A stretch of DNA of 64,000 bases from a virus, in IMG/VR virus record IMGVR_UViG_3300022661_000003; one strand, given 5' to 3'. A program made the translations under genes and the position numbers. Shown piece by piece: positions 15,401 through 36,921 of this stretch. The notes below the pieces were generated by a model. It was not told where the DNA came from. It worked only from the letters and a program-made list of their open reading frames with translations, and made no database searches. Position 1 is the stretch's first letter. Each line of letters starts with the position of its first letter.

Positions 15401-17028
15401 AAAATTTTGAAACTATTACAGTAATAAAACAGAATGAAAGTACATCAACAGAAGCAGATGTTTTAGAAAATGATGCTATTATTACTGCAGATTCTTTAGC
15501 AGATAATTTAACACTAAAAACTGTCAACAGATGGATTGGTATTGGTTTAACTGATCAGAATAATGACGATATTCTTACTTTCGGTCATAGGTTATCAGAT
15601 ATTAAAAATGATACACCTCGTGTATTAAATGGCGCTCGTAAAGCACATAGTAAATATACTAATGTACAGCGTTATGGTTTGCCTTAGAGCAAATCTGTTA
15701 CATTATTAGATCAAGACAATGGACAAGAGCTTGCAAATACATTTAATGTTCCATATTTTGAAATCGATGAAGCTGGACATATGGTATATGCAGAAACAAA
15801 TACTGTAACATTACCAGAAAATTTTGAAACTATTACAATAGCAAAAGCATCAGATAATTTAAGTGAAGAATATGCCACTGAAGATACAAACACAAAAGCT
15901 GGCGCCACGATGGATGAATATGCTACTGCGAATATTATTAAAGCAGATAGTTTAAGTGACAATCTTACTTTTAATACTGGGAATAAATGGATTCGTTTAG
16001 CAGGAACAGATGAAAACGCAACGGATGATATTATAACAATTAGTCATGAAATACATAATATCCGCTCTTCTACTAGCGAAGAAGATATGGATACAGAAGC
16101 TAATAAAAAAGATCAATTTACTACTTAGGTTGTAGAATGGGACAATGCTGGACATATTATTTCACATGACACCAAGACTTGGACTCTACCGAATAGTATT
16201 CGTAATATTACAGTTGGTATAAATTCTGATAACTCCTCTAACGCTGAAGTTAACGATTCTACAGTAACTGTTCAAGCAGACACAACTTTTGATACAGTTA
16301 ATTTTAATGCTTCTAATAAATGGATTAGACTTACCGCAAATGATACTAATAATACTATTACAGTAGGTCATCTTGCTCAAAGTACAGCTGGTTCTTATCC
16401 GAAGAAAGACACGGAAATAGAATTTTCTGAATTTGGCAGTAAAGTAACTTTATAGGGATATGCCATTGATGAGGCCGGTCATATTATTGACTATCCTACT
16501 TATACATTAGCAATACCCAAAGGTTCTTATAGTGAAAATGGAGGCACTGAAGGGGCGAATGTGCTTACTTCTCTCGCTTTTGTTGATACAACTGGAACTT
16601 TAACTGGCACTAAAGTAAATATTGGCACTTTAAAATTAGCAGAATATGAATTAGGTACTGATGTTAGTGCTATTGCAGCAACAGATTAGTTAAATAAAGC
16701 ATTAAGTAAATTACAAGCCTAGATTAATGCTCATAAAACAAATACTGATAATCCTCATAATGTTACTGCAGAACAAGTTGGTTTAGGAAATGTTACTAAT
16801 GAAAGTAAAGCTACTATGTTTGCAAGTGCTGCTTTAACAGGAGAACCTACGGCTCCAACAGCTGCAGCAGGTACAGATACAATGTAGATTGCTACTACAG
16901 CTTTTGTAACAACCGCAGTAACAACATTAAGTAGTAATGTTTATACACAACAACAAGTCGATGAAAAAATCGCAAGTGCTCTTAGAGAATTTGCTGAAAC
17001 TTATGGACTTACCGTTCCTACAACTTAA
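12457..17028 (+). CDS. Tail fibre / receptor-binding protein (~1520 aa) with tandem repeated DxAGH-containing modules; TAG recoded
   Basis: Track ORFs 12529, 13033, 13957, 15781 lie in frame 1, and frame 1 continues through TAGs to TAA at 17026. Repeated modules include NVPYIEVDRAGHVVAAETHIVTLPENFETITV, NVPYFEIDEAGHMVYAETNTVTLPENFETITI, YITVDNAGHIIAAS and VEWDNAGHIISHD. A stem-loop terminator follows. Confidence 0.6.
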
Positions 17029-17037
17029 TACATAAAC

Positions 17038-17070
17038 AAAAGGGCAGATTTATTCTGCCCTTTATTTTTT
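17038..17070 (+). terminator. Rho-independent terminator
   Basis: GGGCAGATTTATTCTGCCC hairpin followed by a T-run. Confidence 0.7.
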
Positions 17071-17374
17071 GAGTAAAGGAGAAATAACAATGGTTAATAG
17101 TCATGGTTATTATTCTGGCCATGTTGGTCAGCTTGACGCAGAATTTGCTGCTAATCAAGATCTTATTACACTAATTCGTGAAAAGCATAAGCTTTATGAC
17201 TTTAAAGGTTTGGTAAAGCTTGGCATTCAAGCTCCTATCGGCACAAAGTTTGTTATCAATGGACAGACTTTGCGTATTGGCGCAACCGGTATTTACGAAT
17301 TAGACCGCACTGTTAGCGTTAAAGAACTTTATTTCGTTGAAGATACTGAAGCTTTAGTGGACTATGTTTATTAA
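17069..17374 (+). CDS. Small conserved protein (101 aa), paralogue of 12116..12454
   Basis: Intact track ORF with an AAGGAG RBS. Shares the LRIGATGIYELDRT motif with the 12116 gene. Confidence 0.6.
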   Translation: MSKGEITMVNSHGYYSGHVGQLDAEFAANQDLITLIREKHKLYDFKGLVKLGIQAPIGTKFVINGQTLRIGATGIYELDRTVSVKELYFVEDTEALVDYVY

Positions 17375-17430
17375 TCTACTCGAACTTCTTTTGAAATTAT
17401 AAGACGACCACAGGAAGGAGTTTGTTGAGT

Positions 17431-17760
17431 ATGGCAAGCTTTTATGGAGGCGTTGGCATATCAGGTGGCTCCGGTGGAGGTTCCTCAGGAGTTGGAATCG
17501 CAACCATTGAATTTGATGAAAATCGCAACTTAATTATCTATCTTTCTGATGGAACCAAGAAAAATCTTGGTATTATTGATGGTGCGACTTATACACCAAA
17601 AGTGGTTGACGGAGTAATTTCCTGGACCAACGATTAGGATTTAGAGAATCCTGATTCATATGATATCACCGCAGGACTCGATGGAGGAGAATACTGGGAA
17701 GGTGTTACTTCTGAATCAGAACAACCCGCGGATGATAATCAATATTGGGAATCAATATAA
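17431..17760 (+). CDS. Small Gly-rich protein (~109 aa), one in-frame TAG
   Basis: GGAAGGAG RBS then ATG. Track ORF 17422..17637 continues through TAG to TAA at ~17758. Confidence 0.5.
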
Positions 17761-17783
17761 TTATTTGAAGGGGTGAAAAATAA

Positions 17784-19016
17784 ATGGCTAAAATTCCTGT
17801 AGTATTTAAGTACGGTACTAGAGCTCAATATGACGCTTTAGCTACTAAGGATGAACATGCTCTTTATTTCTTAACTGACACTGGCGAAATTTATCGTGGT
17901 GCTGTTAATCTTGCCCGCGGCAGTCACTTTGAAGGTGAACTTACTGTTGATGACGCAGATGATATGGCCGTTATCGCACGTGTATTGAACGGTCAACCCG
18001 CAGTCCAAGATGATATTTTTGTCGTAAAATCTCTTATCGCAGATGGTAAGTATTCATATACTTCCTATATCTATGATGAGAATGGAAATTGGAAGGCCAT
18101 GGACGGCAATTATAGTGCCAAAAATGTTTATTTCCACAATGACTTAACTGCTACTGCTCCTATTGGTGTTGTAACCATTCCGGAGACTGGTAGTGCTACT
18201 ATTAAAGCTGAAGGCAAGAGCCTTCATGATGTTCTTGTAAGCATTCTCGCTGAAGAGCTTCAGCCCGAAGCTACTGCTCCAACAGTATCTGTTACTTCTT
18301 CCACTAGAGGTTCTTATGAAGTTGGTAGTGTTATTACTCCAAAATGGAGCGCAACTTTAAATCCAGGTTCTTATACTTATGGACCTGAAACTGGTATTGT
18401 AGCTACCTCTTGGACTATTACTGATAACGCAAGTACTCCTCATGCTTCTAGCGAAGCATCTGGATCTTTTGCTGATGTAACAGCTGAAGATGGTAAGAGT
18501 TATGTTATTAGCGCAACTGCTACATATGATGCTGGTGCAGAGCCTGTGACCAATATGGGTAATCCAGCGGAAGAGGGAATTCAAATTCCTGAGGGTGCAG
18601 CAACAGGTAAAGTAACTGTTGTTAGTTCTTACCGCAATTCTTTCTATGGTGTATATACATCTAAGGAAGTAGATGGTGTACAAACTGGTTCCACTTCTGA
18701 TTCTATCCGTACACTTAAAGCAAGTAATAAAGCATTGGCTAATGGCGGTAGCTTTGATATCGCAATTCCTGCTGATGCACAGCGTGTTGTGATTGCTTAT
18801 CCAGCAACCTTGAAAGACTTAGATCAAGTATTAGATGTTAATGACTCTAATGCTAATATCGTTAGTGCTTTCACCAAAGAAGATGGTACAGCAAAAGCTA
18901 CAATTCAAGTTGCTGGCGCTAATGGATATAATCCTATTGATTATAAAGTATTTAGCACAGACTTTGCTGGCGCTTATGGCGCAACAAATACTTTCAAAGT
19001 AAAAATTAAGGCGTAA
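17784..19016 (+). CDS. Tail fibre-like protein (410 aa), TAG-free
   Basis: Intact track ORF. The N-terminus KYGTRAQYDALATKDEHALYFLTDTGEIYRG is the phage tail-fibre N-terminal motif recurring in several genes of this window. Confidence 0.65.
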   Translation: MAKIPVVFKYGTRAQYDALATKDEHALYFLTDTGEIYRGAVNLARGSHFEGELTVDDADDMAVIARVLNGQPAVQDDIFVVKSLIADGKYSYTSYIYDENGNWKAMDGNYSAKNVYFHNDLTATAPIGVVTIPETGSATIKAEGKSLHDVLVSILAEELQPEATAPTVSVTSSTRGSYEVGSVITPKWSATLNPGSYTYGPETGIVATSWTITDNASTPHASSEASGSFADVTAEDGKSYVISATATYDAGAEPVTNMGNPAEEGIQIPEGAATGKVTVVSSYRNSFYGVYTSKEVDGVQTGSTSDSIRTLKASNKALANGGSFDIAIPADAQRVVIAYPATLKDLDQVLDVNDSNANIVSAFTKEDGTAKATIQVAGANGYNPIDYKVFSTDFAGAYGATNTFKVKIKA

Positions 19017-19030
19017 GGAGGAAGAGAGTT

Positions 19031-20626
19031 ATGGCTTTAAACTTTGGTAAAGGTAATAGAAGTATAGCTTTCGCCCCGACTGCGGCATTCCCGCTTAACG
19101 CGAATAGCTATTTTGAAAGTTATGACCTCGCTCTTGCTGCTGCGTTAACCGCAAAGCCAGCAGGCGACACTACTACTAAATATTATTTCGGCCAAGAAAT
19201 TGCTGTTGCCGAAATGGTAGATAACGTACCTTAGAGTGCGAAATTATATATCATCGCTCCTGAAGCTCAAGAAGATGGTTCTGTTGTAGGAACTCTTCAA
19301 GAGGTTGGCTCTGCCACTGACGGCGATGGTAAATCTATTGAACTTGTCGAAGGCGTTCTTTCTGTAAAGGATTTCGGCAAGCGTTTTTATAAATACATCG
19401 CAGCTACAGAAACTGAAGAAGCTAAATATGAACTTGTTGAAGTTTCTGAAAGCAACCCTTGGAAATCCGGTTTACAACCTCGCATTGATGCCGAAGGTAA
19501 TATCGCTTGGTACGAACCCAATCCTACTACTATTGAAGGAGTACAAGATTAGGTAACTGGTATTCAAGGCGATGTCGAATAGGCTCAACAAGATATTGAC
19601 GCAGTTGAAGAAAACCTCGTAAAAGCTGAAGAGAAAATTGATTCTATCAATGATACTCTTTATGGCACCGACGGTGAAGAAGCTGTCGAAGGTCTTGTTG
19701 ATAAAGTAGCAACTCTTGAAAGTGAAATGGATGCTGTTCAAGGAGCTATTGAAAATACCTATACAAAAGAAGAAGTTGATGGTCTTGTAAGTGGAGTATT
19801 CCATTTTAAGGGCGAAGCCGAAAGTGTTGATGCACTTCCTGCTGCTTCTGCTGAAAATGTAGGTCATGTATATCAAGTTGGTGATCTTGAATATGCTAGC
19901 AATGGTGAAGAGTGGGTTGAACTTGGTTTCGTTGTTGATTTAAGTTCTTATGCGACTAAGACTTATGTTGATGATGAAGTTAAAGAAGTTCAAGATGCTC
20001 TTGATATTGCTGAAGGTATTATTGAAGGACATACTTCTGATATCGAAGAAATTAATGGTGCTATCGAGCGTATCGATGGCGAAATTGATGTTCTTGAAGA
20101 AGCTGATAGAGGATTTACTTCTCAATTTGAAACCGTAAATGGCAAGATTGAAGCCCTTGAAACTGCGGATGAAACATTTACTTCTCAATTTGAAACTGTA
20201 AATGGTAAAATTGAGGCTCTTGAAGCTGCAGATATTGCTTTTGATACTAAAGTTGGTTCTCTTGAAACTACACTTGGTAATATAAATTCTAGAGTTGGCG
20301 CTCCTTCTGAAGGTTCTACAATTACTGTATTGTTCCCAGCTGTTGAATCTTTACAGAATAGAATTAATGATTTAGAAATTAATTCTGGCGCTGGCGAATT
20401 AAATATTATTAATGGTATTACCATTAATGGAACTGCTCTTACTCCAGACGGTTCAAAAAATGTTGCTCTTCCAATTTTTGATGGCTCCAATATTGGTCTT
20501 GTACCTGTTGTTGGTGATGATATTGTTACTGCCACTTCTTTCTTGTCCGCAGAAGGCGCATGGATTGATGTCGCTTCTATGATTGATAATAAGATCGATG
20601 AGGCATTAACTTGGGAAGAAATTTAA
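19031..20626 (+). CDS. Coiled-coil tail fibre protein (~531 aa) with an internal 63-nt tandem duplication
   Basis: Track ORF 19727..20626 is in frame 2 with ATG 19031 (GGAGGAAGAGAGTT RBS) and is joined by three TAGs. Heptad-like Glu/Ala repeats. C-terminus ...ALTWEEI. Confidence 0.6.
20098..20223 (+). repeat. Imperfect 63-nt tandem repeat (2 copies) inside the fibre gene
   Basis: Encodes DRGFTSQFETVNGKIEALETA / DETFTSQFETVNGKIEALEAA. Confidence 0.7.
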
Positions 20627-20656
20627 AAATAAAAAAGAAAAAGGGGATATTTAACT

Positions 20657-22330
20657 ATGGCTTTAACTGATAGCATTCGTTTTAGATAGGGTAGTTTAGC
20701 CTCCCTCGTTAATCAGTCTGTTGTTAATGGTTCTTTATGGTTCACCACTGACGAAGGTGCAATTTATTTAGACGTTAATGGTAGCCGTGTTCGCTTCGGT
20801 GATTTTGTAACTGTTGCTAACGTTGCTTCTCTTCCTACTGCAGGTCATGCTTATGAATCTGCTCTTTACTATGCAAAAGCTGAAAATGTTCTTGCTCGTT
20901 GGGATAAAGCCTCTAGCAAGTGGGTTCAGCTTAATGCTGCTGGCTTAACCAAGGTTAATGTTACTGGTGGTGGCAATGTTCTTGCTGGTGCCACTACAAC
21001 TGTTGACCCTGAAACTGGTGCAAAGGTTCTTACCTTTACCACTCAGAATGTTGCAACTTCTGAAGAACTCGGCACTATGCAGACTCGCGTTTCCACTCTT
21101 GAAACCAAGATGGAAGGCGTTCAGGCTGACATTACAACTTTAAAGGGCACAGGCGAAGGTTCTGTTGCTAAGGCTGTTGCTGATGCTAAGGCAGACCTTC
21201 AGGCAAAAATTGATGCAGTTGATGCTCTTGCTGATCAAGGTATCGCAGATGCTGCTGCTGCAAAAACTTATGCAGAAGGCGTTCAGAGCAACTTAAATGC
21301 TACTAATCTTCGCATGGATACTGCTGAAGCTGATATTGATGCTTTACAGACAGCTATTGGCGAAGGTGGCAGTGTTGACGAGAGGATTGAAGATCTAAAA
21401 GAAGAAATCCTTGGTGATGCTAATAGTGCAGCAGGCTCTGCGACTGTTTCTGGTGCTAATAAAGCCGCCGCAGCCGCACAAGCCGCCGCAGATGCTGCAC
21501 AACAAGCTGCTGATGATGCTCAGGCAGATGCCGATGCTAACGCAGGTGAAATCAGCGGTCTTAAGACTCGTATGGACGGAGCAGAAGCTGATATCGACGA
21601 TCTTCAGGCTGCTGTTAATACCTTAAATGGTGATGACAAGACTGAAGGTTCTGTAGATTATAAAGTAGCTCAGGAAGTTGCTAAAATCTTAAATGATAAC
21701 GACGCTTCTGATATTGACACTCTTGAAGAAATTGCTGCTTGGATTAAGAATGATACCGCAGGTGTTGGTTCTCTTGTAAGCCGTCTTGATGCCGTTGAAT
21801 CTAAGAACAATTCTCAAGATACTTTAATTGAAGGCTTAGATGCTGAAATCGATGCTAACAAACAGGCTGCCGAAAAGGCCGTTTCTGATCTTGAAGAAGC
21901 ACTTATTGGTGATGCTGAGACCTATACCGATCTTGGCAAGGCTGAAGATGCTATTATCGCAGCTAAGGCTCAGGCTGATAAAGGCGTTGCTGACGCAGCT
22001 GCTGCTTCTGCAGCCGCCGCCCAGGTTCAGACTAATTTAAATGCAACTAATGGTCGTGTAGAAGGCGCAGAAGCTGATATCGATGACCTTCAGGCCCGCA
22101 TGACTCAGGCAGAAGCTGATATTGACGCTCTTGAAGCTGCTGATACTACTATCCGTGGCGAATTCGCAGCTGCTGATACTGCACTTAAGAATGAACTTAA
22201 AGGCGATGCCACCACTTATACCGATCTTGGCAAAGCAGAAGACGCTATCCAGGCTAACACTGGTTCTATCAATACTATCAATACCAACATTGAAGCTATC
22301 AATGCTGTTTTGACTTGGGATACTTTTTAA
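20657..22330 (+). CDS. Ala-rich coiled-coil tail fibre protein (~557 aa), one TAG near the N-terminus
   Basis: GGGGATATTTAACT then ATG 20657, in frame with track ORF 21077..22330. N-terminal SLWFTTDEGAIYLDVNG fibre motif. Repeated ADIDALQ / GDATTYTDLGKAEDAI units. C-terminus LTWDTF resembles the preceding fibre. Confidence 0.6.
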
Positions 22331-22339
22331 TTAATAAGA

Positions 22340-22378
22340 AAGGCGGATATTAACTAATAATATCCGCCTTTATTTTTA
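22340..22378 (+). terminator. Rho-independent terminator
   Basis: AAGGCGGATATTAACTAATAATATCCGCCTT hairpin plus a T-run. Confidence 0.7.
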
Positions 22379-22407
22379 TATAAATAAGAAAAAAAGGAGG
22401 ACTCTAA

Positions 22408-25400
22408 ATGGGCATTATGGATTCTCCAGTAAGATTTTTCAAAGGCTCTAAATCTGCCATTGACAATTTTTAGGGAATTGAAGATGGAAGATTGTTTTTT
22501 GCGACAGATACAAAATAGATAATGCTTGACTGTAATTTTACAGACAGCGAAGCAAATAACTATAATAAGAGAATTACTTTTGGTGGGTCTACTGGTATTC
22601 ACTATGCAAATCGCACTTTCACAGAAGATGAAATTGCAGCTGATTTGTATGTCTTTTCCATTTTAGATGGTCATATCGATCAAGAAGGAGAAGAACTTCC
22701 TGAGATTGATGATCTAATTTTGAACGTAAAAGATGGCTCATTTTATCGTGTCACAAGACGAGATGAAACAGAGCTTACTGTAGAAGCTACTAAATTGACA
22801 ATTTCCGGTTCTGGTGGCGGCGGTGGAACCGATGGTGGCGGTGGATATATTTCACGTACGCTATTATCTGATCGTACCTTATATGCCACTAAAACTTCTG
22901 CGAATATTCAAATGAAATATACTTGTTATTCTACTGCAGATGGCGCAAGTATTCGTGCTACAGTGTATGTTGGTACGGGCAGTGGCAGAAAACAAGTTGA
23001 TTATTTCCCAGAAGTTAGCCAAGAAGAACCCAATATCGTTAACATTGCGGAATATATGTCTACTTTAAAATTGAATGCCGCCAACACAATTACCATTCAA
23101 TTAGAAGATGATTATGAAAATTCCATTTCAGTATCTTGTACTGTATATGTTTATGATATGTATGTTACTCTTGTTGGTAGTAGCATGATTTTACCCCAAG
23201 AGAACGATTTTACTTTCCAGGTTCGTCCATATGGAGGCCAAGAATTATCTAATCGCGCATTAGTATATGAATTGCGTCAAGCAGGTAGTGATTCTGTTAT
23301 TGCGAAAGAAATTGAATATACCACTGCTGACAATGGCTCTTCTGCGAATAAAACTATTAAAAAGCAAGAGCATGGCGAATATACTTTAACTGTATATTTA
23401 CAAGGTTAGATTCCTAAATCTGAAGAGTATTTAACTTCTCCTCCTATTCAAATCGAAATTCCATTTTATAATGCGAATGCTTCTTCTCCTCTAATTACTG
23501 CCACTTCAGGTATTACTTCTGCCACACAGTACGATAAAATTAAAATCGATTACATGATTACATATGGAGCAACAAGTACTTCATACGTTAAATTGTTAGC
23601 AGAATATGATGAAGGCTTTGGCTCTCGCGTAGTCGGAGAAGAAATGATTGTTGAAATCAATAATAAGGAATTCTATAATTGGAATGTAACTTTTGATAAA
23701 GCTGCAACTTATTATTTATCAATTATTTATTTGGATTCAAACCAAAATGAAACCGATTATGCCAAAATCTTTACTCCAATTATTGTTGAATCTTTTGATG
23801 AAGAAGTTCCAGTAATCAATACTGCTGATCCATCATTAATGTTATACTTCACCTCTAAAGGTAAGTCTAATAATAGCCAAGATAAAGATACTTGGGTTTC
23901 TAAGTATTATGGTGGAGAAGTAAAAGCACAATTTTCTAACTTTAACTGGAACACTAATGGTTGGATTGAAGGCCCAGACGGTTTAGGTTTACATCTTACC
24001 AATGGCGCAAAAGTAGTTATTCCTTATTCTCCATTTAAACCTGATAGTAACGGTTTGGGTGCAGAAAATTTAGGTCGTACTATTGAATTAGATTTCAAGA
24101 TTTCTAATGTGCGCGATGAAATGGCTCCTGGTATTCAATGCCGTTCTTACTATACAGCTGAATTAGATGATGGCACCAAAGAAGAAATTACCCAAGTAGG
24201 TTTTTAGATTTATGGTAATAAGAGTCAGATGAACTCTGCTTAGGTAAAATCTAAAATTACTGATATGAGTGGATGGACTACGATGTTCAAAGCAGGAACA
24301 CGTATTCATTTAACCTATGTTATTAATAGTGTAAATGATACTCCTCCTCGTATTTTTTATACTTTCTTAAATGGTGTTACTTCTTCTCTATCTGCTTATA
24401 CAGAAACAGACCAATTTATTGACTTATCTGAAGATAAAGATAAAAATATTTTCGATTCTGAATTTATTTTTGATTCTTCATATATGGATATTGATATTTA
24501 TTCAATTAGAGTTTATCAATCTTCATTGAGACCAAATGATGTTCTTCGTAACTGCATCGCAGATAAATCTTCTGCTACTGACGCAGCAGCAGAATGGAAA
24601 TAGAATGATGTTTTAACTACCTTCGAAGATAGAACAACTGGTATTGACCTTGAAGAAGTTATAAAGCTTGGCAATATTCCTTATATGGTATTTTATGATG
24701 GTCGTGATACCGGTAGTAAGAAAGATGAAGGCTGGGAAGACCCTGATTTTGAAGACGGCGAATTCCCGACTTCTGATGAATCTAGATTGCCAACTGGTAA
24801 AAAGGACTTCCGTCACATGGAAATGTATTATGTTGACCCAATTCGTGGTGAAAAATATAATATTGGTACTCCTGATAGTCCAGTAATTGTTACTTGCTAC
24901 GCTCAAGGTACTTCCTCTCTGGAATATCCTGTCAAGAACTTGCGTATTTATTTCCGCAAGAAGGATGACGGCAATCACCCGAATCAAATTGCTAAATATT
25001 CTTTAGAAGATAAACTTCCCGCTGTTAACTTGTTTACTTTAAAAGCAGACTACATGGAATCTGCTAGTGCTCATAATACTGGTACTGCTAATATTTTGGA
25101 TGAACTTTATAATTCAATTGGATTAAAGAGTCCTGCTGCGGCAGCTTATCCAGATAATAGAATTGTAACTGCGATTTTGGGACATCCTATTGTTTGTTTC
25201 TATAAGCCATATAAAGCAAGTGCAGAATTCCCGGATCGTTATCAATATATAGGTCGTTATAATTTTAATTTAGATAAAGCTACTCATGAATTATTCGGTT
25301 TTGAATCCGAAATGGAGGCATATGGTTCCCAGAAGAAACCTTGGGGCTATTTACAGAATGCGGATGGCTCTTTAAGAGACGGTTTTAATACAGCTCTTGA

Positions 25401-28400
25401 ATTTACCGATGGAAAAGTATATTATTCTGAACCTAACTTAGAATCCACTAAAATTGAATTCACTCAAGCTACAGAAGAAGACCGCGAAAAGGCATTTGGT
25501 AAGCAAGCTGCTATTGGCCCAATGTATGAATATAAGAGCGCAGAAGAAGGCGTTACTTGTGTTCAATGTTGGGAGTTCTTAAATAATACTAGTCCATTAG
25601 TTGGATTTAGAGAATATTGGGATGAAGAAGTAGATAAAGTTGAAATAACTCATAAAGATGATACCGGAAAAACTGTAGTAGATCATGCTCCTTATGCTGA
25701 CTGGACAGGCGCTTTTGAATCTCGTTATCCAGAACATGAAGAGGAAGCTTCAACTGATAAACGTACTTTAGCAAGAATGTTAAACTGGGTTGCATCTACT
25801 AATAGACATCCTGACGTTGTAGCAAAAGAATTAGCAGAACAGGGAAAAGATACTTCTCCTGAAGCTATTAAAGCAGAACAAGAAGCCAGATTAAATAAAT
25901 TTAATTTAGAATTTGCTGAATATTTTGTTCCAGATTTTGTTGCTTTCTATTATGTCATTACAGAGTTTCTTCTTATGATTGACTCTCGTGCTAAGAACAT
26001 GATGATGGCATGTTTTGATGCCGATCCAGAAAATAATACTGGACATTGGATGCCTATTTTCTATGATATGGACACAATGCTTGGTGTTGATAACTCTGGT
26101 AACTTACGTTTCCCATATAGCCAAGAGGATAATCAACTTGATACTTTTAATGCCGCAGGTACTTATGATGCTACTCAATATAGTGTATTGTGGTGTAATT
26201 ATCGAGATGCTCGTTTTGGCGATATTAAAGCTATGTATCAAAAATTACGCAAAGGTGGAGTATTTAATTATAATCGTCTTTTAAGAGCTTATAACGCTGA
26301 TCAAGCAGACGCTTGGCAAGAAGTTTATATTAACGAAGACGCCGATTATAAATACATTGATCCTCTTGTTAGCGGATATGAAGTTTGGTTCGATCCAGAA
26401 GGCAATATTATTACTGCTGAAGAAGCAGCAAAAATTGAAGGCGCTAAGAAGAAGAGTGCTGCAAACTATTTATATGCCGCTCAAGGTACTCGTTCGCAGC
26501 ATCGTAATTATTGGTTAGAAAAGCGCTTTAATTATTTAGATTCTAAATATAATTATTCTCAAGAGGTATTAGGCTCTTCTGCAGGTTCTGGTTTGAACTT
26601 CCGTTTGAATTCTGACCTAGCACAAGGCGCAGGTAAGCCCAAGTTCTCTGGTGACTTTGATTTCATTTCATTAGCAGACCAATATGTAACTGTTGACTAT
26701 GCTCAAGGAAATATTGTTGGTCCTGTTCGAATTTATGCAAATCAGCCTTATCATGTTGATAGTCCTTTTGAGACATCGACTGACCAAGAAATGTATATCT
26801 ATGGTCTTGATGATATTGTTGAACTGGGTGACCTTTCTACCAAATACTTTAATAAGTTCCAGTTAAATAAGGCAACAAAATTACGTAAATTAATTCTTGG
26901 TTCTCACGAAGGTAATTTCAGTAATCCGAACCTTGGTACGGCAAATATTTTTAATATTGGTGAGAAGGGAGCAAATGTTCCATTCCTAGAGGAAATTAAT
27001 ATTGAAAATTGTTCCGGTATTAAAGATGCTTTGGATTTGTCTGCTTGTCCTTATTTACAAAAAGTATATGCAAAAGGCTCAGCAATTACTACTGTAAATT
27101 TCTATCCCGGTGGAAACTTATAGCACATAGAATTGCCATCTTCCACTACTGCTCTCTCCTTGAACGGCCAATTGTTCTTTAATACTAAAGATCATCCTGA
27201 AAATTTGAGCATTGAGAGCTATCGTAGATTAGCAAAAATGCATATTACTAATTGTCCTCTTGTTGATTCTAAGACTTTGTTTAAGAATACTATTTATACT
27301 GCTAGTTCAGGTAATGATGTTAGCTCTCTTTTAAATATTCGCTTAGATGATTTAGATTGGACTTTTGACGTAGATGAATGCGTATTTAAAGATAATGTTT
27401 TAACTAATATTCCACTATTAGATATTTTGGTCACTTTAAATGGTCTAAATACTGCAGGTAACAATATTACAAGAGCAGATATGAATAATGACTATTTGGC
27501 AGGAACTATCACTATTCTTAATGGCAATAATTATGGTATTAATGAATTGACACTATATGAAAAGTATAGTATTTTATTCCCTAATTTACAATTTAAGTAT
27601 ACAGAAAATAATTATTGTACAAAAGCCTATTCTATTAATATTAATAATGCTCAATCACAAATTCTTTATTCTTATTCAAAGAAAATTAAAGCTACTGATA
27701 TTGCTACATATAGTGAGAATTTAGAATCTTGGTTCACTCCAGTTGTTTTAGAGTATAATGAGATTGTAGATGAAGTAACAGGTGAAGTTTCTCGTGTTCC
27801 AAAAAATTATGACGAAACAAATCATTTGCCTCCTCTTGTAAAACAATCTACAGCACAGTATATTTATGATTTCCGTGGCTGGGGATTAGAGAAGCCATTA
27901 GATTTCTCTGAACGTGATTATACTTCTGACGAGAGAGAACAAGCTATTGCAGATTCTCTCGCAATTAAAGTATCTTATACTATTGATGAAGATAATAATT
28001 ATACCTATACCGCAGAAAAAGTTAATGGTTTTGAATTGAACATAGATGCATTTGGTACTGACCAAGAAATTAATTTTTATCCAGTTTACGCCGCAGATTT
28101 GAACACTCATATTGTTCGTTTCTACGATGGTATAAATAGTGAGCCATTAAAGGTTGAGCGTGTAAAATATGGTTAGTCAGCGACTCCTCCTCAGAATCCG
28201 CAGAAACTTGAATTGCCCGAAAACGATAAGACAGTTGCTTACTCTTATCCTTTTATTGGTTATAATCTTCCTTACGACAATATTGTTATGGAGCTTAATA
28301 CCATCGCCCAATATGGTACAAAGAAACCTTTATCCAAAATGACAGGCGATGAAATTAGTCGAGATTACTTCAAACCTGCGAGTGTTAGTGAAGGTGTAGA

Positions 28401-29405
28401 TTATCTTACCAGTGATGAAATCGCTATTGGTATTAAACCTGACTTTGCAGACGAGGCTATTATTATTCCTTCTACTTATGACGGAAAACCTGTTGGTCTA
28501 GTTAGAGTAGAGTATGGCGACTAGCAACCTAAGAACTTACGTCGTATTTTCTTCGAAGAAGGAAATACAATTAAGGTTATCGGCAATAATTTTATGGCAG
28601 AAAACAAGAATATTGAATTCTGTGATTTGTCTGCTCTTGGCTCATTATCACTTATCGGTATTCAAGCTTTTATGAATTGTTTTAATTTAACATTTAAGTC
28701 ACTGCCGAATAGCGTTACAAAAATTGACACTAATGCTTTTGCTTATTGCTCTTCAATTAATTTTTCTGCTTTACCTGATAAGTTAGAATCATTAGGTCCT
28801 AATGCATTTAGGTCTTGTGAATCTTTAGGAGAAATTACAATTAATAATACTTAGCTCACACAAATCCCTGATTACGCTTTTGAACGTTGTACTAATCTTA
28901 AGATCAAGGGCGAAACTATCAATTGTTTAGTTACTACAATTGGTTAGTATTCATTTGATTATTGTAGTAATTTAGTTTTGAATTTTGATATTGATTCTAC
29001 TAATAGACTATCTACAATTAAAGATTTTGGCTTCGGTCATACTCCAATGTTAAATATCAATAATTTCCCAAGCAATCTTACTTCTATCGGCACTTCAGGT
29101 ATGAGTTCTGTAAATGGTGCTGGAGGCTTGTTGACAGCTAATGTAATTCCTAAGACTGTTACCTCAATCGGTGGTGGCGCATTTATGTTTAGAAAATTGG
29201 CAGATGAAAATCTTGGTATCCTTATTATCGAAAATCCAAATATTATTTTAGCAGATAGTGCTTTCTCATATTTGTCAGGGGTAAAGGAAATTTGGGTTCC
29301 AAAATCTGTTGATTTAAATAGTGCTCCTTGGAATTCTGAAACTTGTTTTGGATGTACTCAATCCTCTCCTGGTGTTATTATAAAACACAATCCTAATGGC
29401 TAATG
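22408..29405 (+). CDS. Giant mosaic receptor-binding protein (~2330 aa): fibre N-terminal domain, TAG-free CotH-like core (24685-27123), then BspA-type leucine-rich repeats; TAG recoded
   Basis: Track ORFs 22522, 23554, 24265, 24685, 27133, 28213, 28594, 28978 are all in frame 1. No TAA or TGA occurs in that frame until TAA at ~29403. The RBS AAAAAGGAGGACTCTAA precedes the ATG. A CotH-like motif SRAKNMMMACFDADPENNTGHWMPIFYDMDTMLGVDNSGNL is present. C-terminal repeats have the BspA-LRR pattern (IPKTVTSIGGGAF, NAFAYCSSIN). Confidence 0.55.
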
Positions 29406-29418
29406 AAGAGGTATTATT

Positions 29419-29625
29419 ATGAAAAAAGTTATATTATATCAATATGTAAATGATAACAATGAAGTGGTAGTAACTACTGAGCCGATGTCAGAAACATCGG
29501 CTCAGATCTTCTATCTTTTAACTGCGGACGAAGGTTATTATTTATATAATAAAAAATTACATCATAAAAGGAAGTCTACAATTACTTCCGATTATCTTGC
29601 AGATAATTGGGAAGAATTAAAATAG
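29419..29625 (+). CDS. Hypothetical small protein (68 aa)
   Basis: Intact track ORF with a GAAGAGG RBS. Confidence 0.45.
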   Translation: MKKVILYQYVNDNNEVVVTTEPMSETSAQIFYLLTADEGYYLYNKKLHHKRKSTITSDYLADNWEELK

Positions 29626-29642
29626 AAAGAAGGAAATGAGTA

Positions 29643-30992
29643 ATGGCTATTATAGCTTCTGAACATGTATTAGGTCTTGCGATGGGCCAAGAGGCGAAAT
29701 TAACTACGCCTGGCACTACGGGTTATTTAACCCCCAAGGCTGGTATGATGTACATTACAACAGATACTCATAAATTATTTGTTGATACTGTTGATGGTAC
29801 TCGTATTGCGATTAAATCTCCTGAAGCTGCGAAAGTAACTAATGCTTTTACTATTAAGGTTGGAGGCACTGCTTTAGGATCTGCCTTTAATGGTTCTGCT
29901 GCTAAAACAGTTAATTTTGTTGCTGGTACAAACATGCAGCTTGTTCCATCTAATAATAATACAATTACAATTAATAATACTTTGTCTATTCCAACCTCTT
30001 TGAAAAATCCTTATGCTTTAACATGGGGAAATAAATCTTATGATGGTTCTGCTGCGAAAGAAATTACTTTAGAAGATTTCGGTATTACCAATGTTCTTCA
30101 CTTCTTGGGAACTACTACTGATACTAATGTTGTAGACAACGGTACCACCAAGACTATTACTATTGGTGGCGCTTCTGTTACTGCAGTTTCTGGTGATATC
30201 GTAATTAGAGACAATGTTGAATATATCTGGACGGGAACCGCTTGGGAAAAGCTTGGAGACGAAAATCTTTGGGTTCCAAATACTCGCACTGTTAGTGCTG
30301 GTTCTGGATTAACTGGTGGCGGAGCATTATCTGGCAATCTTACTATTTCTCACGCTACTTATAATTGCACCCATCCAACCAGTGGCGATTTTGTGTCAAG
30401 TATTGCTGAAACCAATGGTCATGTTACAGGATATACCAAGACTAGCTGGTCTAGCGTAAGAAAAACTTTAGCTTTAAAAATTAATGGCACTGCTCAAACT
30501 ACTTATGATCCATTTGGCTCAGCAAATCAAAGCTTTAATGTTCCTGTAATGACTGCAGGAGATTCTTCCAAGGCAAGTACAATTGGTTTAGTTCCAGCCG
30601 CAGCTGCAGGAGCGACTACTCGTTTCTTATGCGCCGATGCTACTTGGCACTCTCTTGTAGCGGGTACCGGTATTAGTGTTAATGGATTAACTATTAGTAA
30701 TGCTGGCGTACGTAGTATCACTAAAAAGTCTAATGGTGTACTTACAATTGCTACTGGAGAGGCTTCTGGTGATATTACAGTTTATAGCTTACCAGCAGCA
30801 ACTACTAGCGCTCTTGGTGGTGTAAAAGTTGGTAACAATATTTCTGTAGATAGTGGTGTAATCAGCCTTACCGCAAATAATGTGAAAAATGCATTGGGTG
30901 TTGCTACAGCTAGCGCAGATGGTTATTTACAAAAAACTGATTTTGCTCTATTCACAGAAGCTCATGATTCTATTGTTTGGGGTACTTTCTAA
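29643..30992 (+). CDS. Tail fibre-like protein (449 aa), TAG-free
   Basis: Intact track ORF. N-terminal MYITTDTHKLFVDTVDG fibre motif. Gly/Thr/Ser-rich beta-repeat body. Followed by a terminator. Confidence 0.6.
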   Translation: MAIIASEHVLGLAMGQEAKLTTPGTTGYLTPKAGMMYITTDTHKLFVDTVDGTRIAIKSPEAAKVTNAFTIKVGGTALGSAFNGSAAKTVNFVAGTNMQLVPSNNNTITINNTLSIPTSLKNPYALTWGNKSYDGSAAKEITLEDFGITNVLHFLGTTTDTNVVDNGTTKTITIGGASVTAVSGDIVIRDNVEYIWTGTAWEKLGDENLWVPNTRTVSAGSGLTGGGALSGNLTISHATYNCTHPTSGDFVSSIAETNGHVTGYTKTSWSSVRKTLALKINGTAQTTYDPFGSANQSFNVPVMTAGDSSKASTIGLVPAAAAGATTRFLCADATWHSLVAGTGISVNGLTISNAGVRSITKKSNGVLTIATGEASGDITVYSLPAATTSALGGVKVGNNISVDSGVISLTANNVKNALGVATASADGYLQKTDFALFTEAHDSIVWGTF

Positions 30993-31045
30993 TTGGTCCG
31001 TCTAAATTAAATAATCTAAATTGCTTTCTATATTATTTAGAGCAT

Positions 31046-31085
31046 CGGGAGGAGTCTATTTCTGGGCTCCTCCCATTTTTTTATT
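31046..31085 (+). terminator. Rho-independent terminator
   Basis: GGGAGGAG...CTCCTCCC hairpin then TTTTTTTATT. Confidence 0.75.
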
Positions 31086-31351
31086 ATAAAGGAGATTTGA
31101 TTATGCCAAACATTATTTTTGAGAATGGCGGTCATTTAAGAACGACTCAATGTTCTGCAGATGAAGTATATGGTATTGAATCTCTTCAAATTTACATTCC
31201 TACTATTTATAATAATTCTCAAATTTTCCTTATGCTCAAGAATAAGTAGAATTTATATGAAATAGTAGAATTAGTAAAAAGCAAAAGAGAAAAAAACCAT
31301 ATCATTTGTAAGATTGCCGCAGGTTAGAATTTTAGAGTTTCTAATGATTTA

Positions 31352-31570
31352 ATGACTTTGGCAATCTTAATTCTTGATCCAGTAAAAAATATATTTGAAT
31401 TTAGTAAGGAAATTGAAATTAATCTTACAACTGATAAATATATTATGGCGCGGCAAATTCAATTAGCGGCGCAATTAGGATCACAAGTTTAGGCTTATTA
31501 TCAAAAGATAGTAGAGCTTACTGAAGAAAATAAAAAAATATATGAATAGATGAAAGGGGTACATATATAA
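31352..31570 (+). CDS. Small hypothetical protein (~72 aa, 2 TAG)
   Basis: Frame-2 ORF ending in TAA overlapping the ATG of the 31570 gene (TAATG). Confidence 0.3.
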
Positions 31571-33270
31571 TGATAGTAAGAGTTCCTTCTTATACTGAAG
31601 ATGCTATCTTGCATGGTGAATATCAAAAATTATTTGCCGCAGCAGAAAAGAAAACAGACCCAGGTACAACTATTACTAGTTTACCAGAATATTTTAATGC
31701 CCTTCAAAAAGATGCCAATTTGCGTGGTATTGGACGTTTTGCTCGTATTCCTCTTGATGAAGATTTATTTTTAGTAAATTTAAATGATCGTTCTATTACT
31801 GTTCCTCCACATTTCCAAAAATATGGTGTTGCAGTTAATGGAGATCATCTTGCTGAATTCTTATTCTTCCGTGTTGATAGATATTTTGATCAAATGGATT
31901 TATCTGAATGTGAATGTCGTATTGAATGGATGACTGCAGGAAATAAACCATTGGCGGCTTATACACCAGCACATGCTATTGATTTAGTGTTTGAAGCTCC
32001 AATTGATCCTTCCATTAATCCCAAGCCTACTCATGGCGATATTATTTATGCTGATGATAGTGAAAATGAAGAAGACCGTGAAAATGGAGATAGAAGTGCA
32101 ATTATTTTTGGATGGCCTTTAGATAATCAATTTACTTCTGAAGTTGGCGATGCTAAATTTGCAATTCGTTTTGTTTAGTATGATGTCAATGAAAAAGATG
32201 GAACTAAAGAAATTGTTTTCAATCTTTTAACTTCTCCTGCTACTGTGAAAATTCTTCCAAAACTTCCTATTGATTCTGAAATGCTAGAAATGGTAGATTA
32301 TAGTGCTACTTTGGCTTCTCGTCCTGTATATTCTGGTTTAATTAATAGCACTGGTCTTAAACCTGTTATTACTTCTTATAGCTGGGCTGAAAAAGCTTAT
32401 GAAAATTTGGAAGAAAATGGTCAAGTAACATTAAGTGTTACGGCGACTGACCCAGATCCTTCTAAACATCCTTTAACTTATCAGTGGTTTAAAGATTCAA
32501 AATCACTTTCAGGAGAGACACAATCTTCATATGTTGCCACTGAGGCTGGATTGTATCATGTTGTTGTTATGAATGCCGTAGAGGATGAAGAAGGCAATCA
32601 AATCAGTACGACTAGTATTGCTACTAATCCTTGTTTAATTCCTAGTGCAGGCAAAATTGCTATTGATTATGAAGGTTATCCATTACAGCTATTTTCTAGC
32701 GGTGAATATGCAACTTCTGAAATTAAAGTTAAATTTGTTCCTGCTCTTGAGGCAGATCATAATCTTGGAAAGATTAATTATTCTTGGGCCGAAGATGGTA
32801 TTGAGATAAATACTGGTGCAGTTGAAAAAGCAGGAGATTTCTATTGGGAAGTTCCATTGACAATTGAAAATATGGCTCATGGTAATTTTGTTTTAAATGC
32901 TACTCATGTATTAAATAAAACAGAATCTGCTACGGTAGAGAGTAAAATGATTGAAATTCGTCCTGCCGCACAACAACCAGAAGAAGTTGTAATTAGTGCA
33001 AATGAAGACCGTTCTATTTTTGAATGTTCTTGCGTTGTACCTGGCAATGATGATTTACAGTATACTTGGTCTTATACTAAATCTGAAGGTACTTTGATTT
33101 CTATTTCTTCCGGTTGGGGAAATGAAAAAACTATTTCTATAGAAGCTATTGAAGCAAAACTTGGACGTGAAATAAAAGCTAAAGAAGCTTTACATGTTGC
33201 AGTGCGTCAAATTCGTTTTAATAATGAAGCAAATGCAAGTACAACTGCTAGCGCCAGTTTTAATCTTTAA
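31570..33270 (+). CDS. Structural protein (~566 aa, one TAG); N-terminal domain paralogous to the 33300 gene
   Basis: Track ORFs 31570 and 32245 are both in frame 1, joined by TAG at 32176. Contains Ig-like repeat segments. Confidence 0.55.
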
Positions 33271-33299
33271 GATTAGTTTCATAAAACAGGAGGTATAAT

Positions 33300-33926
33300 A
33301 TGAGTTATTATCTCGCTAATTCTTATTATAATGCTCTGTTGGATATATAGAATAATTCAGGTACATAGCTTTTAAAGTTTGATTTAACAGACGAAGAAGA
33401 TATGATAAAACCTCTTATTGAAATTGATCTAAATAAACGCTTAATTATTTTACCTCCTGAATATGATCCTGAGCAAGGTGGTTTTTTAAGCCTAGAAAGT
33501 GATCATTTAGCAGAGTATTTATATTTTGTAGTAGATCGTTATTACGAAGATATGGATTTATTTCAAACTGCTATTGTGGTAGAATATATTAATGCTGCAG
33601 ATAAGCCGGAATCTCGAATATTTCCGGTCATGTTAAAAGATATTACTACTATGCCAGGCAAAATTATTTTTGCCTGGCATATCGGCAATGAAGCTACAAA
33701 AGCGGCTGGCATGATTAAATTTGCAGTACGTTTTTATTTAGTTCATCCGACAGAGGCTAAATTTGAATATAATTTAAATATTTAGTCTTCACAGAGTGAA
33801 ATTAAAAAAAGTTTAGGGCATATAGACTGGGAAGAAGAATATGCCGATATTTTTGATCCTTCTACTCTTGAGATTATTTTATCTGGTATTGAAATGGCCA
33901 GACATGTATATTGGACAGATGTTTAA
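33300..33926 (+). CDS. Hypothetical protein (~208 aa, 3 TAG), paralogue of the 31570 N-terminal domain
   Basis: GGAGGT RBS. Frame 0 contains track ORF 33402..33785. Shares HLAEYLYFVVDRYYEDMDL / FAVRFY motifs with the 31570 gene. Confidence 0.5.
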
Positions 33927-33953
33927 TTTTTAGAGAAAAAGGAGTTTTTTTAT

Positions 33954-34214
33954 ATGGCTCATAAAATATTGATAGGTAATGATGGAACTTACGGGTCTCC
34001 TGTTACACATTCAGATTTTGTATTTTTTGATGATGGTGAAAGCCTTACTGAAAAAATGGATGTGTATAATATTTATATTAATGATTTAATGTATCCTGTG
34101 GGTCGTATTCTTGAAACCACAGGAAATTTTAATCCAAATGGGCATTATCCTGGTGTGTGGCGTTTATTAGAAAAAAATCATACTGTCATTAGTGCGGGTT
34201 CAATTGCATTATAG
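33954..34214 (+). CDS. Small protein (86 aa), likely N-terminal partner of the collar-domain proteins
   Basis: Intact track ORF with an AAAAGGAG RBS. Confidence 0.45.
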   Translation: MAHKILIGNDGTYGSPVTHSDFVFFDDGESLTEKMDVYNIYINDLMYPVGRILETTGNFNPNGHYPGVWRLLEKNHTVISAGSIAL

Positions 34215-34232
34215 GGGAAGAAAGAAAGTCCT

Positions 34233-35066
34233 ATGGAATTATTTCTTCCTGATGGATCAGTATGGGATTTAATTTATCATCATGAAATTGCAGGTGGATA
34301 TTGGGCATCCACTGCCGATTGCTTAGATTTTGATTTAAATGCTACAAAACAAAAATTTGGAAAAATGAAATATGTAAATAATTATTATAATGCCAATGAT
34401 ACATTAGAATTTTTAATGGTATATAATGTTCCTTATGGAGGCGGAGTCTCTGGTGCAGTAACTAATATGGGGCGTTGGGTACAGCATGCTTCTCCTTTTT
34501 CGGCAGGTAATGCCCATAGGTCCGCGGCATGGGATAAACCTGCTACTGTTGATGGTTATAATGCAACAACCACATTTACGGCGGCAGATGGTACGATTGT
34601 TACAAATACCGATATTAATGCTGGTTTATATGTACCATGGACGGCACATAATTGGACTGGTTTAAGTCTTTCTCGTCCTAGTAATGCATATTTTGCAGGT
34701 AATCACTATGGGACTGGATGGTTTTATGCTATTGGTTCAAAAGCTGCTTATGAAGGTGGTATACCTGCACACATTACGGCAACTGCTTGTACTTTGTATG
34801 TCAGAAAAGATAATGCGGTATTAGCAAATTTAGAAAATGGTGGTTATGAGTATGGTGAAGAGCAACATCTTTTGACAGTAGATGAAATGGCTTATCACGA
34901 TCATCGTTTATATTATACAAAAACTGGTAATTTTACTAATTCGGCATCTGATAATGGGTAGCATTAGGCTCCTGATAATTATTATACTGGTCCTCGTGGT
35001 GGTTCACAAGCTCATAATAATATGTAGCCTTCAATTTATGTAAATTTATGGGAAAGAATATCATAA
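34233..35066 (+). CDS. Phage tail-collar-domain protein (HxH motif), TAG recoded
   Basis: Track ORF 34233..34961 continues through three TAGs to TAA. Carries LTVDEMAYHDHRL and a C-terminal GGSQAHNNM motif typical of Phage_tail_collar proteins. Confidence 0.5.
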
Positions 35067-35080
35067 AGGGGGTATATTAA

Positions 35081-35593
35081 ATGGAGTATGTACCAGTAGT
35101 AGAATTAGAACAAACTGATTTAACAGTTTTACCAGATAGTATTAGCTATTATGAAAATTATATTTTAAAATAGTTAGATGATGTATTATTACAATATACA
35201 AACTCATCTAATTTATTAAATTATCATTATCCAGTAGGCTCTATTATTGAAGTGCTTAAAGCAGATTATGATCCTAATGGACAATTGCCAGGAGTATGGA
35301 CAAGATTTGGAGAAGGCCGTACTATGATTAGCACTGGTGGAGATAATTCATTATTAGAAACTTCTATTGGAACTTTTAAGCATTTATTAACTATAGATCA
35401 AATACCTTCTCATACTCATAGATTAGGATGGAATAATGAAGAATCTCGTTAGCGTCGTGCTTCTTCTTGGACTGAAATTTGCTAGGGTTCAGGCTATAAT
35501 GAAAGTTATATTACTATGTCTACTGGTGGAGGCGCAGCGCATAATAATGTTTAGCCGTACATTGTAACATTTAGTTGGAAGAGGGTGTCTTAA
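35081..35593 (+). CDS. Phage tail-collar-domain protein paralogue
   Basis: Frame 2 with track ORF 35252..35452. Carries LTIDQIPSHTHRL and GGGAAHNNV. The TAA overlaps the next ATG. Confidence 0.5.
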
Positions 35594-36162
35594 TGGCCAC
35601 CGTAAAAAATTATATTTTAAATGTTAATGATCAAAAAGTATATCCTAAAATTAAAGCGTCTCAAGTTTATATTCCTAGTTTAAATATGTCTTTAGAAGAG
35701 TATTATGGCAATGAGACTTTAACATTTTAGGACTATATTGATTTAATTTTGCCTATTGGTTTTATTTATAAAACTACTCGAGAAATTGATTTAAATAATT
35801 TTAATTTTGATAATTAGTCAGTGCATTGGTTTTGGGAACAATTGGAAGCAGGACATATTTTAGTTGGAGAGGGTTCTTATACTGATAGTAACAGCGAAAC
35901 AGCGACTTTTTATCCTCTTGGTACTGAAACTGAAAATGCACTAACAGGTGAATGGCGTCATACATTAACCGTAGATGAAATTCCTTCTCATAATCATGGT
36001 TTGCCTAAAGATGGTTCTGATGATGGAGAAAATTATTATGACGTAGGAGATTCTCGGACTTCAGCAGTATCAGCTTTTTATACAGGAGGTACTGGTGGTT
36101 CCACCCCTCATAATAATATGATGCCAGCAAAAACAGTTTATATGTATCGAAGGGTGGTATAA
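35593..36162 (+). CDS. Phage tail-collar-domain protein paralogue
   Basis: Frame 1 with track ORF 35821..36162. Carries LTVDEIPSHNHGL and GGSTPHNNMMPAKTVYMY. Confidence 0.5.
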
Positions 36163-36377
36163 CATATGGCAGCAAGTACAATCACACAAGATGAATTGCA
36201 AAAATTTTGGAATGCTTTTAAATTAGAATTGGAAGCTTCTGCCCTAAAACCTTATGATACAATTTTATTTAAAGATTAGGGTAATAATGCAATTCATAGT
36301 ATGTAGTTTATTGATGGAGTAGTTACTTCTCAAGAGCAAACTACAAATTAAAATAATGGTAGAAAAGAGGCTTCAAT

Positions 36378-36908: not shown

Positions 36909-36921
36909 AGGAGGGTAAAAA

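Follow-up and report, generated by a model that had tools for sequence, protein, structure and literature searches.

The DNA analysed in this study is a stretch of 64,000 nucleotides (nt) from the IMG/VR virus record IMGVR_UViG_3300022661_000003, hereafter called the window. The plus strand of the window carries, at 22408–29403, a gene for a protein of 2,331 amino acids (aa) with in-frame TAG codons, which lies among further tail-fibre genes. The features of this gene and its surroundings are listed in Table 1. The gene is interpreted as a tail fibre of a large gut phage in which TAG encodes glutamine (Gln), and as a member of an established family of giant fibres with an ancestral core of CotH kinase-like fold and a diverging tip of leucine-rich repeats (LRRs). 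The probability of this interpretation is estimated at roughly 85%. The phage itself is probably a large gut phage of 130–150 kb.

Table 1. Features of the giant fibre gene and of the minus-strand module, in positions of the window
Feature	Position	Strand	Basis or remark
Terminator-like hairpin, 14-bp stem followed by a T-rich run	22339–22371	+	Between the preceding fibre gene and the 2,331-aa gene
Shine-Dalgarno sequence AGGAGG (perfect)	22395–22400	+	7 nt upstream of ATG 22408
Predicted giant tail-fibre/receptor-binding protein gene, 2,331 aa	22408–29403	+	TAG = Gln; stop codon TAA at 29401–29403
N-terminal fibre motif, aa 7–45, PVRFFKGSKSAIDNFQGIEDGRLFFATDTKQIMLD	22426–22542	+	Shared with paralogous fibre genes at 17784, 20657 and 29643 (alignment of N-termini)
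Gly-rich linker SGSGGGGGTDGGGG, aa 133–146	22804–22845	+	Translation
Family-conserved N-part, aa 147–789: beta-rich repeats, then putative LamG/ConA-like lectin region (~aa 470–720)	22846–24774	+	PHROG 24896 and 14959 matches; BLASTP collinearity
CotH kinase-fold domain (predicted), ~aa 790–1395, with a poorly predicted insertion at ~aa 994–1046	24775–26592	+	
Putative catalytic loop and metal-binding motif D1192-SRAK-N1197 ... Y-D1220-M-D1222	25981–26073	+	
Beta-sandwich and internal LRR-like region, ~aa 1396–1760	26593–27687	+	Closes the family-conserved collinear block
Middle region, ~aa 1761–1990	27688–28377	+	No Pfam match; 69% identical to the ortholog L001
Divergent distal tip with BspA-type LRR (LRR_5), aa 1991–2331	28378–29400	+	Pfam LRR_5
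Terminator-like hairpin, 12-bp stem with 7 GC pairs	29477–29505	+	74 nt past the stop codon
dUTPase	52949–53533	−	
NrdG	54537–55070	−	
NrdD	55057–57312	−	
DnaE/YorL-type polymerase	57927–61775	−	

Frame 1 of the interval contains 11 TAG codons (aa 22, 37, 334, 600, 612, 732, 1572, 1923, 2039, 2149 and 2180) and neither TAA nor TGA until the TAA at 29401–29403, compared with 125 and 328 stops in the other two frames. The TAGs divide the frame into 12 pieces, 8 of which exceed 100 aa. This agrees with a preliminary description of the same DNA, which had reported a frame open for about 7 kb and joining eight open reading frames (ORFs); no in-frame TAA or TGA had been overlooked ahead of position 29401. 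The interval holds a single gene, which encodes a 2,331-aa read-through protein, because a perfect ribosome-binding site is found only at 22408 and the gene is bracketed by two terminator-like hairpins. No hairpin as strong as these two was found inside the gene, and the candidate starts that follow the TAGs, including ATG 24685, never showed a Shine-Dalgarno match better than 4/6. Similarity to other proteins also passes through the TAGs: the match to PHROG 14959 is unbroken over aa 274–1651 and crosses five of them (E 6e-100), and the Pfam LRR_5 match runs across the TAG at aa 2149. In an ortholog that is 73% identical (L001, on an 18-kb Logan contig, with 3 TAGs in the gene), the same frame is open for 2,380 aa. 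The division of the interval into several adjacent standard-code genes, with TAG as a true stop, is very improbable, although standard-code gene callers do split it (P0001, for example, is a 1,341-aa fragment) and the window holds no suppressor tRNA. The continuous profile matches and the missing ribosome-binding sites after all TAGs argue against such a division, as does the same collinear sequence in relatives that are single proteins of 2,000–2,900 aa. The interchange of TAG with CAA and CAG at orthologous sites and the near doubling of the ORF total of the window only when TAG is read through point in the same direction.

The decoding of TAG was evaluated by comparison. Under the standard code, the ORFs of the window that reach at least 150 aa have a combined length of 11,713 aa; reading through TAG raises this total to 20,441 aa, and reading through TGA to only 13,104 aa. 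Six of the 11 TAGs of the gene are aligned to CAA or CAG in the ortholog L001, and two of the three TAGs of the ortholog are aligned to Gln codons (CAG or CAA) of the window gene. Full-length relatives were aligned with the window protein (14 sequences), and Gln occupies 23 of the 141 cells of the 13 relatives at the TAG columns, which is about 5-fold above the background of 3.1%. This interchange and this enrichment indicate that TAG is read as Gln (genetic code 15) in the window phage. The plus strand (1–51.5 kb), which carries tail-fibre, baseplate-like and endolysin genes, is rich in in-frame TAG, and the replication and nucleotide-metabolism module past the strand switch (51.6–64 kb, minus strand) is nearly TAG-free. 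The concentration of TAG in late genes and its scarcity in replication genes is the pattern of code-15 phages (bioRxiv 10.1101/2021.08.26.457843; PMC9523058; PMC10607447). Three tandem paralogs with a T4 Gp10_C-type C-terminal domain (PF21939) are located at 33954–35066, 35081–35593 and 35593–36162. In their HNN(M/V)-Q-P motif, TAG stands directly before Pro in two paralogs and Met in the third, which agrees with TAG as a sense codon; we take Gln to be the usual residue before Pro in this motif.

The three parts recognised in the preliminary description, namely, a fibre N-terminus, a CotH-like core and a BspA LRR array within one ORF of about 2,330 aa, were recovered and could be subdivided (Table 1). 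The FFATDTK motif described earlier is real and lies in an N-terminal segment (...GRLFFATDTKQIMLD) that the protein has in common with the three neighbouring fibre genes at 17784, 20657 and 29643. Residues 9–31 of the paralog at 17784 match PF24243 ('Phage tail tip domain'), and the same motif opens most full-length relatives; it is presumed to be the attachment module. Gly runs resembling the linker that follows occur at the same place in the relatives P0005, P0034 and NatCom_3357. Further downstream, a match to PHROG 24896 covers aa 128–968. The PHROG matches extend across the junction of left flank and core, and the phage family thus already spans this junction. The N-part is collinear in BLASTP with NatCom_3357 (window aa 225–972) and with the target protein of the diversity-generating retroelement (DGR) of Hankyphage (window aa 470–972), and a Laminin_G_3 match in one family member supports a probable LamG-like lectin region within it. 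The neighbours of the gene match tail-fibre PHROGs, Gp10_C and PF24243. The position in the tail module and the N-terminal motif shared by four adjacent genes suggest that the 2,331-aa protein is a tail fibre or receptor-binding protein, consistent with the earlier proposal of an adhesion or enzymatic protein carried on a fibre.

The relatives place this protein in a large family. An exhaustive search with the core yielded 1,826 cluster representatives (clusters at 50% identity), including 599 at E<=1e-30, and the top ones are mostly 2,000–2,900 aa long. The top 146 have a median length of 2,156 aa, and all four representatives that were checked end in LRR_5. Relatives are collinear with the window protein over the N-part, the core and the LRR tip at 27–46% identity, and the core occupies approximately aa 730–1700 of these 2,000–2,900-aa proteins. 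Two of them (L007 and L008) follow window aa 7–1749 at 27–28% identity, both with an LRR tip; another (L009) was found as a single IMG/VR locus by a single-protein search. The core is the best conserved region in every relative. No match to the gene was obtained by Megablast among 50,697 phage records, and no relative of the core was obtained among 185,579 species-representative genomes with a search that detects close relatives only. Judging from these alignments, a very large family of giant fibres, the Hankyphage DGR target among them, inherited the whole architecture from its ancestor, and the core is the most constrained part of the family and not a recent insertion.

The fold of the core was predicted from a 24-sequence alignment, as the preliminary description had proposed. 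The AlphaFold2 (AF2) model of aa 733–1571 reached a predicted local distance difference test (pLDDT) score of 69.6 and a predicted template modelling (pTM) score of 0.75. Foldseek searches of the PDB with this model gave significant matches only to Bacillus cereus CotH (5jd9/5jda, E 2e-6), and those of BFVD returned many phage proteins labelled 'Spore coat protein H kinase fold' or 'CotH kinase'. The model thus shows the CotH atypical-kinase fold. Among the sequence-based searches, the Pfam scan of the window protein gave LRR_5 as the sole match, and the Pfam CotH model matched 2 of 24 family members (best E 7e-13). Comparison by phmmer of the core, P0031 and P0034 with PDB sequences gave no CotH match, and the profile of the family alignment A1 retrieved LRR proteins only from the PDB.

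A short motif links the predicted fold to the kinase. The sequence of 5jd9, obtained by a PDB query with a B. subtilis CotH sequence, contains FDGFVHN ... WDYD, which is the same D-x3-[KH]-N...[FWY]DxD pattern as that of the putative catalytic motif in Table 1. This pattern recurs in every relative whose sequence spans the region and in 143 of the 146 best-ranking family representatives; its columns are nearly invariant in alignment A1, and the segment is the best conserved and among the best predicted of the AF2 model. Near-invariance of this sort is typical of active sites. Mutation of D228 or D251 inactivates CotH of B. subtilis (PMC7821199), and the window residues may be equated with these two by the motif, the correspondence being one of pattern and not of significant alignment or side-chain superposition. 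A distant core homolog of 1,343 aa (P0031), with the catalytic motif kept, was also observed on three ENA scaffolds of 500–720 kb (L002–L004). DnaB, integrase, RNA ligase and HSP90-like genes are its neighbours, and the scaffolds may be megaphage genomes.

The preliminary description had suggested, from the zero TAG codons and higher GC content of the core, that it was acquired by recombination and came from DNA in the standard code, for example a gene for a host surface protein. The region of 24685–27123 is indeed free of TAG, and the TAG-free run extends over 24604–27123 (839 codons, aa 733–1571). However, with 11 randomly placed TAGs, a gap of at least 839 codons has a probability of 0.088, or 0.068 if TAGs are confined to Gln codons. 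The GC content of the core (0.364) does exceed that of the left (0.343) and right (0.327) flanks, by 2–4 points, but this places the core only at the 72nd percentile among all stretches of 2,439 nt. The GC content at third codon positions (GC3) is the same, with 0.228 in the core and 0.219 and 0.218 in the flanks. The excess lies at first codon positions (0.496 versus 0.426 and 0.404) and therefore reflects amino-acid composition, the core being richer in Ala and Glu and poorer in Ile, Ser, Thr and Asn than the flanks. The core is thus moderately higher in GC, as described, and equal to its flanks in synonymous composition.

The relatives argue further against capture. The ortholog L001 has a TAG inside its core, at the site of window Gln860 (CAA). 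Across four relatives (L001, L007, L008 and L009; 2,156–2,573 aa), 8 of the 27 TAGs fall in the core-equivalent region, which makes up 36.8% of the length (P 0.55), and L009 has a 955-codon TAG-free run of its own elsewhere in the protein. Identity between the window gene and L001 at four-fold degenerate sites is 0.46 in the N-part, 0.50 in the core and 0.43 in the middle region, compared with protein identities of 0.76, 0.88 and 0.70. The equal four-fold-site identity indicates that the core and flanks have diverged over an equal time; the greater similarity of the core at the protein level reflects purifying selection. The core also holds the same position in hundreds of relatives of 2,000–2,900 aa that have the N-terminal motif and the LRR tip in common. 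No close bacterial homolog of the core was found, the search of species-representative genomes being sensitive to close relatives only, and the best non-orthologous matches reached at most 46% identity. CotH and BspA domains do occur in bacteria, and the missing TAGs, the GC difference and a test with the core taken as pre-specified (P 0.005) favour capture. Against the evidence from GC3, the ortholog TAG, four-fold sites and collinearity, a foreign source of the core is scarcely credible and was rejected. The absence of TAG from the core is a chance gap among only 11 TAGs.

The true discontinuity of the gene is the LRR tip, which has been replaced or has diverged past recognition, as expected of a host-range determinant. 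Pfam LRR_5 (PF13306) matches aa 2058–2189 and a second stretch with 90.9–94.8 bits (cut-off 27.7; E 7.5e-26 to 5e-27). The PDB profile matches to the BspA-like LRR proteins 4fs7 and 4gt6 come from the C-terminal tips of relatives in alignment A1, in which the row of the window protein stops at aa 1571. The last ~340 residues are 33% identical to those of L001, versus 70–88% upstream, and the identity profile drops there from 60–95% to 25–39%; identity at four-fold sites is 0.26 in the tip, which is the random level. The best database matches to the tip are fragments of 61% and 50% identity on tiny contigs, followed by generic LRR_5 proteins of many phyla at about 30%. Host capture of the tip was also considered; no close cellular relative is present among these database matches, which provide no evidence for it. 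The tip is a likely host-range determinant and is presumed to be the receptor-binding part.

Several results weigh against the overall interpretation. The Pfam CotH model (PF08757) gave no match to the window protein even at E<=10, and a comparison of the family profile with the 5jd9 sequence alone by hhalign did not reach significance (probability 0.16%, E 0.37). The AF2 core model is of moderate quality, given its pLDDT of 69.6 and the 24 sequences of its alignment, and membership of the core in CotH is suggested by fold, transitive matches and a short motif. ARAGORN found no tRNA or tmRNA gene in the 64-kb window, and a suppressor tRNA, if any, must sit elsewhere in the genome; some recoded phages have no suppressor tRNA (PMC10607447). 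The decoding of TAG as Gln is supported by evidence of a comparative kind. With the core taken as pre-specified, 0 of its 26 Gln codons are TAG versus 11 of 47 in the flanks, and a mild true depletion of TAG in the core may exist in the window lineage.

The intact and conserved motif suggests an active kinase. We tentatively propose that the CotH-fold domain, which some 1,800 clusters of giant phage fibres have conserved, would be an active phosphotransferase on the virion. It would act on fibre or virion proteins in assembly, in analogy to the patterning of the spore coat by CotH, or on a host-surface protein or glycan on contact. Alternatively, the domain may be catalytically inert and serve as a structural or adhesive module only, as proposed for the CotH invasins of Mucorales; we consider this somewhat doubtful. 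A virion fibre acts outside the cell, where ATP is scarce, the domain is placed between lectin-like and LRR binding modules, and Pfam CotH has no match, all of which would suit an inert domain. Conversely, D-x3-K-N and DxD are retained in 143 of 146 representatives despite an overall identity of 27–46%, and conservation such as that of this segment, which is also among the best predicted of the model, is typical of active sites.

Proteins of this type have been described in other systems. Phage proteins of approximately 2,000 aa with CotH and Laminin_G_3 motifs were reported as DGR targets (PMC5758913), as were Bacteroides proteins that exceed 2,000 aa and combine CotH with carbohydrate-binding and LRR modules (bioRxiv 10.1101/2024.11.15.621889), and CotH kinase domains in phages were called 'currently unstudied' (PMC8008677). 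The closest parallel discussed here is the DGR variable protein of Hankyphage (Bacteroides phage p00, BK010646; 2,245 aa, 31489–38226), which corresponds to the 'category f1' targets in PMC5758913 (Wu et al. 2018) and to 'domain group 3' in bioRxiv 10.1101/2024.11.15.621889 (Macadangdang et al. 2024) and which has been treated as the tail fibre of Hankyphage (PMC12135933). Both are giant tail fibres of more than 2,000 aa with LamG-like, CotH-kinase-like and LRR modules and the same catalytic motif; window aa 470–1625 and Hankyphage aa 661–1608 are collinear in BLASTP at 26–27% identity. The Hankyphage gene adjoins tail genes, after the minor tail protein, and the homolog in NatCom_3357 follows TMP-Dit. 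Unlike the window protein, the Hankyphage target ends in a C-type-lectin variable region that is diversified by the DGR, with variable region (VR), template repeat (TR) and reverse transcriptase (RT) annotated. The N-terminus is a fibre motif in the window protein and an Ala-rich coiled coil in Hankyphage, and the phages differ as well: the window phage is TAG-recoded, large and SPbeta/phAss-like, whereas Hankyphage is a Mu-like temperate Bacteroides phage. The window gene was also considered as a DGR target, and this was rejected for want of a TR/VR-like repeat: no direct repeat of at least 40 nt was found that involves its 3' end, and no CLec-type match was obtained, an RT not having been searched for systematically.

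The differences from the Bacillus kinase (5jd9/5jda; PF08757) are larger, with an identity of approximately 10% and neither a Pfam nor an hhalign match. The CotH domain of the window protein has large insertions and lies within a predicted virion protein of 2,331 aa, whereas Bacillus CotH is a stand-alone enzyme of 360 aa. The domain resembles annotated giant phage proteins of CotH fold (Foldseek E 4e-23 to 2e-13). These are large proteins with multiple domains, and several have LRRs. Examples include Siphoviridae/Myoviridae sp. ct... entries, gp353 of Bacillus phage G, which was also matched by tblastn, and the crAss-like cr52_1 and cr124_1 proteins labelled 'internalin-like' or 'spore coat protein-like'. 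Identity to these proteins is 12–22%, and the surrounding domains and phage groups differ. In its use of TAG in late and structural genes, including tail fibres, the window phage is similar to code-15 gut phages, namely, phAss-1 (Phassvirus, PMC10607447), crAss-like phages (PMC9523058) and those of Borges et al. (bioRxiv 10.1101/2021.08.26.457843). Its polymerase is closest to those of phAss-1 and of SPbeta/Enterococcus phages of 130–140 kb (38–39% identity), but the kinship with known code-15 phages is distant, as also seen from the missing nucleotide-level match in the phage records. Suppressor tRNA genes have been described in phAss-1, in contrast to the 64-kb window.

Within the fibre cluster, the genes at 17784–19016, 20657–22330, 22408–29403 and 29643–30992 share the motif xVxFxxG...G.L[YFW]F.TD[TE]..I..D, which suggests alternative fibres that use one docking site. 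The cluster (17784–30992) has a GC content of 0.372, compared with about 0.315 elsewhere (1–17783 and 30993–46966). Its GC3 is 0.21–0.27 versus about 0.15–0.16 in four large upstream late genes (3–17028), and TAG makes up 15 of 128 Gln codons in the cluster and 73 of 186 (~39%) in those four genes. Low TAG use could therefore be a property of the whole cluster (17.8–31 kb), exchanged with, or evolving like, a higher-GC and TAG-poor recoded lineage similar to L001, which has a GC content of 0.395 and only 6 TAGs across the syntenic 18 kb; the TAG-poor stretch of the giant gene would then belong to this pattern. We regard this as unlikely, and module exchange, expression level or amino-acid bias may each underlie the composition of the cluster. 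The nucleotide identity to L001 is only 70–80% and four-fold sites are near saturation, which excludes a recent exchange with that lineage; the GC excess of the coiled-coil fibre genes is partly a matter of amino-acid composition (Ala/Asp/Glu-rich), late genes at 47–51.5 kb also have a high GC3, and an effect specific to the core would be left unexplained.

Other large late genes were also observed in the window. The ORF at 3–6026 (>2,007 aa, 34 TAGs) is cut by the start of the window and matched no family, and that at 12445–17028 (1,527 aa) has internal repeats of ~140 aa and a tail-fibre-like C-terminus. Scanning TAG-free segments of the large ORFs upstream (1–12 kb) against PHROG gave no useful annotation. 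An 869-aa protein at 36919–39528 consists of Cys-containing repeats of ~22 aa ('CGxNVxxMxxxYxxCxxLT', 66-nt period); the TAG-free part that was scanned (37858–39525) had no Pfam or PHROG match, and the protein may represent a novel repeat or LRR-like tail protein.

In the arrangement proposed for the giant fibre, the order from N to C terminus would be a docking motif, a Gly-rich linker, beta-rich repeats with a LamG-like lectin, the CotH kinase-fold domain, the internal LRR region, the middle region and the BspA LRR tip. The N-terminal motif would dock the fibre on the tail tip, like the three paralogs, and the LRR tip would contact the host surface. The CotH domain would be catalytically competent and may phosphorylate virion proteins while the particle is being assembled and ATP is available, like the CotH of the spore coat; alternatively, its substrate may be a component of the host surface.

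These results have implications for the analysis of recoded genes and for the biology of the family. A long TAG-free stretch in a recoded gene with about ten TAGs is no evidence of foreign origin, and differences in GC content are best judged at synonymous positions. As identity drops sharply within the final ~340 residues, the LRR tip is a likely host-range determinant. The gene adds a member with genetic code 15, a BspA-type tip and no DGR to the very large family of giant phage fibres that carry a CotH kinase-fold domain, and the near-universal conservation of the catalytic motif poses the concrete question of whether phage fibres carry an active kinase, and on which substrate it would act. 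If this were true, such fibres would represent a new enzymatic class of receptor-binding protein.

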